Assembly (NCBI GenBank): GCA_038826135.1
Contig: JAWBON010000002.1
Span: 1-30,257, forward strand
From: Candidatus Odinarchaeota archaeon
Lineage (GTDB): Archaea > Asgardarchaeota > Odinarchaeia > Odinarchaeales > Odinarchaeaceae
Direction of reading: 5' to 3'
Length of the DNA: 30,257 nt
In this document: positions 25,873 to 28,757 of the stretch, one piece after another
Position numbering within the stretch: position 1 is the first letter of the stretch
How the letters are laid out: every line of letters starts with the position of its first letter
Translations under genes and position numbers: made by a program
The notes under the pieces: generated by a model
Told to the model about the DNA's origin: nothing
What the model saw: the letters and a program-made list of their open reading frames with translations, nothing else
Databases searched by the model: none

Positions 25873-25944
25873 GAGATTGCAGCGGGTAATGCTCCTCCTA
25901 ACCAGTCATCCCCCGTCTATTTGCTGGTTTCTTGAGGTGGTTTG

Positions 25945-26505
25945 ATGAACCTTGTTATATGTATAAGCGGTTCAGCTGGTACTGGTAAATCAACTCAAGC
26001 TACTGTAATAGCTAAAAAATACGGGTTAAAGTACGCTTCAGCTGGGAGTATTTTCAGAGATATTGCACGGGAAAGAGGGTTGAGTTTAAAAGAACTCTCC
26101 GAACATGTTTTAGAAGATACAAGTATAGACCTTGAAATCGACAAGAGAACTAAGGCTTTAGCTAAAGCCGGTAACATAGTTTTAGAGGGGCGTCTCACCG
26201 CTTGGATGACTAAAGGAATTGAGGCGCTTAGAATTTATCTAAGATGTCCGTTAGAAACGGAGATAAAGCGGGTTGCTGAAAGGGATGGTAGGAGTTTAGA
26301 GGAAGCTAGAGCTGAAACAATCGCTCGCGAGGAGAGTGAGAGAGTAAGATACAGTAAAATATACGGGATAGATGTCCGCGATCTAAGTATATACGATATT
26401 GTAGTGAACACCGACATTTACTCTATTGAAAGTGTTACAAAGATACTTATTACAGCAGTTGATGAGTATATTGCAAATATGGATAAGCGTTCAAACCGCT
26501 GCTAG
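25945..26505 (+). CDS. cmk: Cytidylate kinase (archaeal type)
   Basis: ISGSAGTGKST, SAG.IFR.IA.ERG, VLEGRL..W, RVAERDG, RY..IYGID. Confidence 0.95.
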   Translation: MNLVICISGSAGTGKSTQATVIAKKYGLKYASAGSIFRDIARERGLSLKELSEHVLEDTSIDLEIDKRTKALAKAGNIVLEGRLTAWMTKGIEALRIYLRCPLETEIKRVAERDGRSLEEARAETIAREESERVRYSKIYGIDVRDLSIYDIVVNTDIYSIESVTKILITAVDEYIANMDKRSNRC

Positions 26506-26506
26506 T

Positions 26507-26605
26507 TGGCGCGGGGGGCGGGATTCGAACCCGCGCGATCCAATGGATCACAAGCTTTCAGTATCCTCTCCAGGCTTGCGCCGTAGTCCACTTGGCTACC
26601 CCCGC
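26507..26605 (-). tRNA. tRNA-Ser(GGA) with an 11-nt intron at 37/38 (26557-26567) and encoded CCA
   Basis: Acceptor GCGGGGG/CCCCCGC, discriminator G and CCA. D-stem GCC/GGC, anticodon stem CAAGC/GCTTG with loop CT-GGA-G|intron|A. Long variable arm GATCC-ATT-GGATC and T-loop TTCGAAT. Confidence 0.92.
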
Positions 26606-26643
26606 CTAAAGATAGGTTAATTATAGTTTTCGCTACTTGTAAT

Positions 26644-27639
26644 TTAAGGTTTCCATGAAGGCGGATATGTTCCAGCCTTCATTAATACACTATCTGTTAA
26701 AGCGACCAGACCGTGATCCATATCTAAAATCTGCTTAGTGGTTGCTAAAGCCCTTCCTAAAGCTATAATCTCCCCCTTTAAAGTGAAGAACGCCACCAGT
26801 TCATTGGGCTGTATATCTGTCTCTAATTTTAAAACACCGGGCGCTGCTAGCGCGGCTCCGTGGCATATTGCGTCAACAGCTGAGTCTCTTACTATAATCT
26901 TAGGTATATGAGGGATCGCGTTCTCCATAGGTTGTATAACATTTCTAATAGCGTTCTCATCACCCTCCTCCTCGTAGAATCTGTAAGCGTCTAACACGTC
27001 GTGTAATGTTTTAAGTGTTTCATCCTCTCTATGGGGGCCACTTCTGGTTCTTCTAAGCTCCTGCATGTGAGCGCCGCATCCGAGAACCTCCCCTATATCA
27101 TATACTAGTTTGCGCGCGTATGTTCCAGCCTCGCAACCCACTATTATCAATGCATCTCTGCCAGAAACCTCTAATAAATCAATATAGTAAACGCTTCTAA
27201 TCCTCAGCTCTCTTTTAACAGATGATCTTACCGGGGGTCTCTGATATATTCTACCTTGGAAAAGCTGGACTGCTTCTCTAACCTTAGCTTCAGGAATCTG
27301 GGTGTGAAGCCTCATTAACACGATGTATTCTTTACCAGCGTTAAGTAATGCTTGAATTAGTTTAGTCCCTTTGCTGAGTAAAACAGGTAGAACGCCTGTA
27401 ACCTGAGGATCTAGTGTTCCGCTGTGCCCTGCTTTCCTTATTTGAAATATTTTCTTAATCCACGCTACAACCTCGTGGGATGTAGGTCCGGCTGGTTTAT
27501 CTAGGTTTATGAAGCCTCTATCAATATATTCTTTAATAGACCTCATATTCGGCGGTAGACCGTATTCCGGGTTAGTTGTATCATCAGCTTTAACTATCAG
27601 CTTTCTTTCTCTGTCAATAGGTAAACGATACTTCTCCAA
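26644..27639 (-). CDS. truB: H/ACA RNA-guided pseudouridine synthase Cbf5 (TruB family)
   Basis: NLDKPAGPTSHEV, catalytic GHSGTLDP, GKEYI, CEAGTY.RKL, ELRRTRSG and a PUA domain. Confidence 0.96.
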   Translation of the reverse strand: MEKYRLPIDRERKLIVKADDTTNPEYGLPPNMRSIKEYIDRGFINLDKPAGPTSHEVVAWIKKIFQIRKAGHSGTLDPQVTGVLPVLLSKGTKLIQALLNAGKEYIVLMRLHTQIPEAKVREAVQLFQGRIYQRPPVRSSVKRELRIRSVYYIDLLEVSGRDALIIVGCEAGTYARKLVYDIGEVLGCGAHMQELRRTRSGPHREDETLKTLHDVLDAYRFYEEEGDENAIRNVIQPMENAIPHIPKIIVRDSAVDAICHGAALAAPGVLKLETDIQPNELVAFFTLKGEIIALGRALATTKQILDMDHGLVALTDSVLMKAGTYPPSWKP

Positions 27640-27671
27640 TTAACCGCCTTCCAACCATTTTTATTCTATAA

Positions 27672-27719
27672 TCTGGAGAACGCTTTATTAGTCGATTTCA
27701 GCTATCAACCTGTATTCTC
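27672..27719 (-). ncRNA. Candidate K-loop-containing H/ACA-like hairpin between eL14 and cbf5
   Basis: Manual fold: lower stem GAGAAU/GUUCUC, internal loop, upper stem GGUU/AAUC capped by GA-UAGCU-GA, and an AGA box 3' of the stem. Confidence 0.3.
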
Positions 27720-27724
27720 GAGAA

Positions 27725-27997
27725 CTATTTCACAGGGTTTTTAACATAGTCTAACTGGTTGGCTTTCTGTAAAGCTTCTAGGATCTCCTTGTCATCAGCG
27801 CCTTTTTTAATATCTATTTTTATAGGGGTTGGCTCGATATGTTTAATATTAGTTCTTCTCCTACGCACTCCTGTAAGTTCCTTAGGACCTGTTACAAGTA
27901 CGAAGTTTTTATCAACACTGTCAACTATAATACATTTTCTACCCGCTTCTCTACCATATAGTTTTACACAAATCCTACCAACTTCTATAATCGGCAT
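27725..27997 (-). CDS. rpl14e: 50S ribosomal protein eL14
   Basis: [49 protein letters not shown]. Confidence 0.96.
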
Positions 27998-28103
27998 TTT
28001 ACACCTCCTCCTTTCTAGGTCTACATTAGAGTCGCCTCTAATGGTTCACTCCTGTGAATGAGAGGTTACTAACCCGATACTAAAAAACAAACAGTATTTA
28101 AAA
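27998..28103 (-). promoter_or_regulatory. eL14-cbf5 promoter (TATA TTTTAAATA, 28095-28103) with a ~75-nt structured 5' leader
   Basis: Perfect 8-bp hairpin CAUUAGAG-GCGA-CUCUAAUG (28024-28043), hairpin UUCAC-AGGA-GUGAA (28045-28058), and SD GGAGGAGGU. Confidence 0.6.
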
Positions 28104-28127
28104 GATTATTGGTTTATCTGAAGACTG

Positions 28128-28757
28128 TTATTTTAATATTTTGCCCGTTTCAATATACCAGAGATATAAATCCAGCTCAGCCAGACTTAAATTATTTCGC
28201 TCCGCTATTTCTCGTAGAGTCCCCTCGATCTCTAAATATTTTCTCTTAGTGAGTGTTTTAGGTTTAGTTACGAGTCTATGCTTGTCAAGCAGTTCTAGTA
28301 TGTGGCTGTCTATTATAGCTATATTCGAGTAGCCTATATTTCTCATAAAATGGGATGCCTCTTTATATCCTAGACCTTTAATGTTGTTTTTAAGCCATTC
28401 CCTGAGCTCAGATTCTCCTATACTATTATCAACTAGTTCCTTTATTTTCTCCCTATATTTTCTCGCTTGAACTATGTATTTTGCTCTGAATGGGAAACGG
28501 TAGCCGTTATCTCTTAACACTCTCTCCAGTTCCCCCTCTCCCATATTTAAAAAACATTCACGTATTCTCTGATGTATTGTTATAGCGCGTTCAGCGTTAA
28601 AATTCGCTGTTAAAATACAGTAACATAGCTCTTCATATATTCGATCACAACAACTTTTACCGGTGTTTTTAAATTCTAAAATCCGCTCTTCCACTTTATT
28701 TTTTAAACCGCTGGCTTTCAATCTTTCAATTTCTCTTATAAGCTGCTCGTAAACCAT
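28128..28757 (-). CDS. ogg: N-glycosylase/DNA lyase, 8-oxoguanine glycosylase (Ogg2 type)
   Basis: ELCYCILTAN, YRFP.RAKYI, HhH-GPD region IKGLGYKEASHFMRNIG...IAIIDSHIL, LDLYLWY..TGKILK. Confidence 0.93.
   Translation of the reverse strand: MVYEQLIREIERLKASGLKNKVEERILEFKNTGKSCCDRIYEELCYCILTANFNAERAITIHQRIRECFLNMGEGELERVLRDNGYRFPFRAKYIVQARKYREKIKELVDNSIGESELREWLKNNIKGLGYKEASHFMRNIGYSNIAIIDSHILELLDKHRLVTKPKTLTKRKYLEIEGTLREIAERNNLSLAELDLYLWYIETGKILK

Follow-up and report, generated by a model that had tools for sequence, protein, structure and literature searches.

The window, a 30,257-nt stretch from a Candidatus Odinarchaeota archaeon (contig JAWBON010000002.1), carries on its minus strand a leader between an N-glycosylase/DNA lyase gene and rpl14e, which encodes ribosomal protein eL14, with cbf5 next after rpl14e (Table 1). 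Comparison with relatives showed that the spacer between eL14 and cbf5 is not conserved, and since cbf5 has its own Shine-Dalgarno sequence (SD) behind it, eL14 is regarded as the directly controlled gene. Comparison of this spacer across sister species revealed no conserved kink-turn; a kink-loop-like string at ~27686-27713 on the minus strand occurs in this genome and is absent in the sister species. Gene order differs between lineages: in this genus (window 25942-28757), eL14, cbf5 and a tRNA-Ser gene run head-on to cmk, and most relatives have cmk, eL14 and cbf5 in line. The leader stayed with eL14 when this genus separated eL14 from cmk. In the window, cmk ends 1 nt from the 3' end of the tRNA, and cbf5 is uninterrupted.

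Table 1. Features of the eL14 leader and neighbouring genes, numbered by window position.
Feature	Position	Strand	Remarks
cbf5	26644-27639	-	Downstream of rpl14e; separate SD behind a non-conserved spacer of 85 nt; NF003280, 452 bits
tRNA-Ser	26507-26605	-	Better read as Ser(GGA), a short intron following the anticodon, than with the AGA anticodon given by ARAGORN
rpl14e (eL14)	27725-27997	-	Gene with the hidden SD; NCBIfam NF003320, 123 bits against a cut-off of 87
SD GGAGGU of eL14	28003-28008	-	3' side of the closing helix; complements this genome's own 16S tail
Kink-turn, non-bulged strand	28017-28023	-	G28021, A28020, then C-stem CCU; from family comparison
Kink-turn plus capped arm	28017-28053	-	Full span
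8-bp stem with G-GCGA-C cap	28024-28043	-	On either strand, 10 nt from the kink; covariation; may mimic the 23S tips to which eL14 binds
Kink-turn, bulged strand	28044-28053	-	C-stem AGG, bulge AGU (L3 = U at 28048), G28047, A28046; UGA nearly invariant
Anti-SD ACCUCU	28061-28066	-	5' strand of the closing helix; predicted pairing with the SD
Candidate 5' hairpin	28063-28075	-	GGGUU with AACCU, captures the anti-SD; possible in 4/4 genus members
BRE-like and TATA-like box	28095-28112	-	TATA-like TTTTAAATA at 28103-28095; nearly identical in 4/4 genus members
N-glycosylase/DNA lyase gene	28128-28757	-	Upstream, context only; NF002305

The strings named in a preliminary description of this leader were all found where it had placed them on the minus strand, and two of the helices proposed there held up. 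The 8-bp stem (28043-28036 with 28031-28024) around the GCGA loop (28035-28032) showed pair probabilities of 0.95-1.0 at 37 °C, and hiding of the SD GGAGGU (28008-28003) by ACCUCU (28066-28061) showed probabilities of 0.86-1.0 depending on the chosen ends; both are conserved. These helices dominate the predicted ensemble, and the leader region folds better than shuffled sequences (z = -3.0, with 2/200 shuffles equally good). For a second hairpin that had been proposed (28058-28045), the probability was only 0.2-0.3 at 37 °C and fell to 0.02-0.06 at 65 °C; this hairpin shares sequence with the kink-turn's 5' strand, and an equivalent UUCA/UGAA pairing was seen only within the genus. The suggested alternative pairing of ACCUCU with AGAGG inside the capped hairpin had to be abandoned: its probability is <0.0001, it is ~8 kcal/mol worse, it would destroy the most conserved helix, and family f12 has no AGAGG at all. 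The interpretation as a regulatory leader thus survives as a conserved, SD-hiding cis-leader, given its covariation, its fixed place before eL14 and the TATA/BRE-like box upstream, but the switch geometry built on the second hairpin and the AGAGG alternative does not, and the kink-turn that defines the element had been missed.

We compared the sequences upstream of eL14 in 110 Asgard genomes and at 76 TACK loci. One element, with a common order of parts, recurs in eight Asgard families: a short G:C stem leads into a 3-nt bulge whose last base is U and then GA; a 9-11-nt stem closed by a GYRA loop follows, and the return strand runs through a second GA into the partner stem. Among 31 aligned leaders, 80% of the cells pair, and 86 double-change cells were counted against 34 in shuffled alignments and 14-20 in slid controls, where kinship among leaders inflates such counts, the slid controls retain that kinship, and related genomes are not independent. 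A covariance model matched 55/150 Asgard genomes from the eight families, nearly always once per genome, and leaders held out of its training still scored down to E = 1e-5. All of the best 30 matches lie directly before eL14, with cbf5 behind eL14 in 30/30. The same model matched 0/151 Thermoproteota and gave no significant match in five named TACK genomes or at 80 metagenome eL14 loci. A comparison across Asgard and TACK genomes had been suggested; the structure is conserved among Asgard and was not found in the TACK sequences searched. A search of Rfam 15, at the gathering score and at E up to 10, returned no family matching the leader. On this comparative evidence, the leader is a real folded element common to eight Asgard families, whose covarying structure regularly precedes a ribosomal-protein gene, as expected of ribosomal-protein leaders (r-leaders). 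It is restricted to Asgard among the Asgard and TACK sequences searched. The comparison shows these predicted parts: the helix of anti-SD and SD, an arm with interruptions, a kink-turn with a bulged U and tandem G·A pairs, and a stem of ~10 nt capped by G-GYRA-C.

The kink-turn has the standard sequence features, namely a C-stem, a 3-nt bulge, tandem G·A and A·G pairs and an NC-stem, and these are conserved in the eight families. Its UGA occurs in 29-31/31 aligned leaders, its closing pair is G:C in 29/31, and a strict full descriptor of the element occurs once in this genome. In 16 leaders of family f6, a 3' insertion pairs with the UGA while the cap and its distance remain unchanged; the polarity of the kink appears from sequence to be reversed in most f6 leaders, and L3 is U in 12/16 of the flipped ones. 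The 2n position, which L7Ae reads, is A in 2/4 f15 leaders and in several f6 leaders in the flipped register. Kink-turns with a G:C-type closing pair do not fold in ions alone and do fold with L7Ae (Huang 2019, PMC6298567), and by these sequence rules we predict protein-dependent folding of the leader kink-turn. An L7Ae gene is present in this genome.

A stem, an internal loop and a kink-turn in this order and orientation also characterize archaeal H/ACA guide RNAs, and with cbf5 as the constant neighbour behind eL14, the element could be read as an H/ACA or C/D guide RNA, or as an H/ACA mimic bound by Cbf5-L7Ae. We consider this very improbable. No conserved ACA or ANA follows the basal helix, which contains the SD, and sequences past that helix vary freely; the helix below the kink has only 2-3 bp to the first interruption, and internal-loop sequences differ between families and offer no conserved pseudouridylation pocket. 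For a C/D RNA, the 24-nt hairpin interior is too short to hold C'/D' boxes and two guides of 10-12 nt, and no guide RNA family of Rfam matched. A small-molecule riboswitch, one of the classes to which the leader had been likened, is hardly tenable. The hidden SD would suit it, and kink-turns and GNRA docking occur in riboswitches, but outside the kink and cap no unpaired base is conserved that could build a pocket, the ribosomal-protein gene context points to a protein ligand, and Rfam contains no match. Cbf5 as the ligand, also suggested earlier, is similarly unlikely given the lack of a conserved pocket and an ACA box and the separate SD of cbf5.

In L7Ae translational operators, the kink-turn hairpin overlaps or abuts the SD. 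In most of the families studied here, the SD follows the kink by ~11-13 nt, with a CCUC-type anti-SD on the upstream side of the kink, and a long-range helix is predicted to hold the SD at this distance. Long-range SD pairing was predicted in 37/53 motif-bearing leaders, compared with 9/60 TACK controls and 16/48 other Asgard regions. The anti-SD:SD helix shows little covariation because the SD sequence is fixed, and per-sequence pairing was not significant against dinucleotide shuffles of each leader's own flank because the shuffles retain the C/U bias. Only the comparison between motif-bearing and motif-less loci separated, with median anti-SD pairing of -9.4 and -4.5 kcal/mol, respectively. 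SD sequestration, an expression platform of r-leaders, is thus predicted here.

The BRE/TATA-like box lies 37 nt above the anti-SD in this genus, and an AT-rich box occurs at similar spacing in the stand-alone leaders of f12 and f6. In archaeal promoters, a general spacing rule places the start site relative to the BRE/TATA box; the position of the box here therefore makes a transcript start near 28075-28070, upstream of the element, likely. The 5'-terminal GGGUU can form a hairpin that captures the anti-SD. Relative to the closed fold, this alternative was calculated to be less stable by 1.2 kcal/mol in the window and by 3.5-4 kcal/mol in three sister species. This hairpin is a candidate for the open state in this genus and, by these energies, a better alternative than the AGAGG pairing.

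A different way of opening the element is suggested by the families in which cmk precedes eL14. In f5, f15, several f12 leaders and one f7 leader, cmk terminates at the UGA of the kink, so translating ribosomes would open the element in those families; in f19, the cmk stop lies 8 nt upstream. This arrangement could be taken to mean that the leader is only a ligand-free hairpin for coupling or expression damping, in which ribosomes ending cmk melt the anti-SD with no protein sensor involved. We judge this improbable, as the element is intact where cmk has been inverted away (this genus) and where it stands alone with the end of cmk 60-140 nt upstream (f6, f26 and part of f12), and coupling would require neither a kink-turn nor a specific cap.

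A search that did not fix the loop sequence found G-GYRA-C in 49/53 leaders, with all four GYRA variants represented and a purine at loop position 2 in none; three of the four exceptions are misregistrations or contain no element, and the fourth has truly lost the cap. Counting from the loop, a 5' purine is retained at the third pair and the second pair varies freely, as is also the case at the H54/55 hairpin of 23S rRNA. The cap also occurs before eL14 on scaffolds without the canonical kink (3/3 in f27 and 2/8 in f4), compared with 1/76 TACK regions. Conversely, the kink-turn is kept in f2 and f3 where the cap is missing, and the loop differs in one f7 leader. In the three f13 leaders, GGCAAC is present in 3/3; this string was not counted in support of the cap because it may be a junction linker.

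These observations bear on a protein-based alternative, an operator for L7Ae alone, in which L7Ae would bind the kink, stabilize the arm and close the SD helix, thereby tying eL14 output to free L7Ae, with the cap having a merely structural role in stability or RNA-RNA docking. We consider such an operator the less likely reading. It would account for a standard bulged-U kink-turn in a 5' UTR, for the G:C closing pair (PMC6298567) and for the f2 and f3 leaders, where the kink occurs with no cap; operators of this kind are established (PMC5539422), an L7Ae site has been noted in the T. kodakarensis cbf5 transcript (PMC4247193), and L7Ae itself is present. It would leave unexplained the near-invariant G-GYRA-C at a fixed distance and the recurrence of the cap without the kink. 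The hidden SD, moreover, is that of eL14 and not of an L7Ae partner, and some leaders have the A at 2n. Known L7Ae operators have no cap, and those of l7ae in this genome and in genome G040 carry a kink-turn but no capped arm; the cap therefore needs an explanation other than L7Ae.

A candidate explanation comes from the ribosome. Each archaeal 50S subunit contains two copies of L14e: the H25 tip, next to H41, binds one copy and the ES20L tip, next to H58, the other, and in Pyrococcus L7Ae is bound at Kt-25 of 23S rRNA (Armache 2013, PMC3553981). Archaeal ribosome entries in the PDB likewise contain two eL14 chains each. We examined about 50 Asgard and 30 TACK 23S sequences and scored 29 GNRA tips in Asgard. 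The H54/55 hairpin, which we take to be ES20L by reference to the yeast rRNA structure, carries G-GYRA-C in 48/49 Asgard sequences, where the same four variants occur, and in 30/30 from TACK. At the Asgard H25 tip, GYRA was found in 39/41 and G-GYRA-C in 26/46 sequences, and the tip is G-GAAA-C in 3/4 species of this genus. G-GYRA-C is frequent at only 4/29 Asgard 23S GNRA tips, namely the H54/55 hairpin, H25 and two others; the chance that both eL14 tips fall among these four is ~1.5%, a rough, post hoc figure that assumes H54/55 to be ES20L. Since two further 23S tips carry the cap, it may be a general docking motif.

The leader and H25 (PMC3553981) share a helix, an internal loop, a short G:C stem, a kink-turn, a stem and a GNRA-type tip, and the G-GYRA-C cap is common to the leader, H25 and the putative ES20L tip at H58. 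In contrast to the leader, however, Asgard Kt-25 mostly lacks the bulged U, and arm lengths differ; the covariance model matched neither 23S rRNA nor l7ae leaders, so the likeness to rRNA is confined to a 6-10-nt tip and does not extend to the whole element. H25 in this genus (L246-L249) is ~18 nt shorter than in most Asgard families (L250-L296), and the longer Asgard H25 contains an extra capped hairpin behind a loop-E-like motif. An eL27 family search of five genomes gave no match, and its controls likewise gave none.

Our preferred interpretation, held with about even confidence and based on sequence comparison, is that the leader is a translational feedback r-leader for eL14, in which the kink-turn would act as a hinge or an L7Ae site, with or without L7Ae. 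Through the kink, the capped hairpin would come to lie alongside the SD helix and so reproduce a GYRA tip set against a helix backbone, which is how eL14 is bound at its two 50S sites (the H25 tip with H41 and the ES20L tip with H58). Tandem C-G pairs, such as those in the SD helix, are typical GYRA receptors. Spare eL14 would bind this composite of tip and helix, lock the closed fold and block loading of the 30S subunit. Binding and folding of the kink by L7Ae is probable, by analogy with Kt-25 of the same rRNA helix in Pyrococcus, and the element may read both proteins. Opening would depend on the 5' hairpin in this genus, or on ribosomes finishing cmk where its stop lies inside the element. 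A stronger version of the feedback leader, which we put forward tentatively and regard as unlikely, is a two-protein sensor: L7Ae would fold the kink, and the G-GYRA-C tip, docked beside the SD helix, would be read by eL14. That such a sensor would amount to a miniature 23S helix 25, shutting eL14 synthesis only when both proteins are in excess, is an equally speculative proposal.

The feedback leader resembles several known systems in part. With the l7ae 5'-UTR operator (Daume 2017, PMC5539422; Huang 2019, PMC6298567) it shares a bulged-U kink-turn, SD occlusion and the closing pair that predicts protein-dependent folding. Unlike that operator, it precedes eL14, has its SD in a separate long-range helix ~12 nt beyond the kink, bears a stable arm with a near-invariant G-GYRA-C cap, and was found only in Asgard. 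With rRNA-mimicking leaders, among them the archaeal eL15, S15 and L4 candidates (Eckert and Weinberg 2020, PMC7247131), it shares a covarying structure before a ribosomal-protein gene, a narrow lineage and a small rRNA-like motif; it differs from them by adding a kink-turn that could recruit a second protein. Compared by description, the T. kodakarensis cbf5 site (TK1509; Jager 2014, PMC4247193) is also of the kink-turn type, and a transcript here can include cbf5, but the hidden SD is that of eL14 and cbf5 has its own. Archaeal H/ACA guide RNAs share the hairpin, internal loop and kink-turn, whereas the leader has neither ACA box nor conserved pocket and overlaps the SD. The published leader list has no L14e/eL14 entry (PMC7247131), and no Asgard or eL14 leader was found in the literature searched. 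By sequence, the leader appears to work like an rRNA-imitating ribosomal leader and to contain an L7Ae-type kink-turn, and its membership is putative in both classes.

The survey also revealed other RNA elements in Asgard genomes. Kink-turn operators abutting the l7ae SD were seen at L208 (G000:C20, upstream of 1562, minus strand) and at L206 and L207, which extends the element of Daume 2017 to Asgard. Further structured, lineage-specific eL14 leaders comprise a multi-helix junction in f13 (L015-L017), an H25-like hairpin in f27 (L088/L097/L116), paired hairpins in f4 (L030/L078), and kink-turn-only leaders in f3 (L022/L023) and f2 (L006/L010/L011). In f13, f19 and f7, cbf5 contains a ~30-nt insert with bulge-helix-bulge-like flanks at the catalytic Asp codon, near codon 77 (L015-L017, L018, L021, L025, L219, L224, L228-L230, L232 and L234), which is the site of the crenarchaeal cbf5 intron (PMC2738675). 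A different, frame-breaking insert near codons 43-47 of f12 cbf5 (L013, L217, L225, L226, L231, L236 and L238) is possibly a second intron site, and our literature search found no report of it.

The leader predicts what eL14, and its eukaryotic relative eL27, recognises, and it represents a regulator that has outlasted rearrangement of its operon, its overlap with a stop codon and what appears to be a reversal of its kink-turn. If the two-protein sensor were true, it would be the first eL14 leader and an Asgard-only cis-regulator, and G-GYRA-C would be the recognition element of the eL14/eL27 fold.
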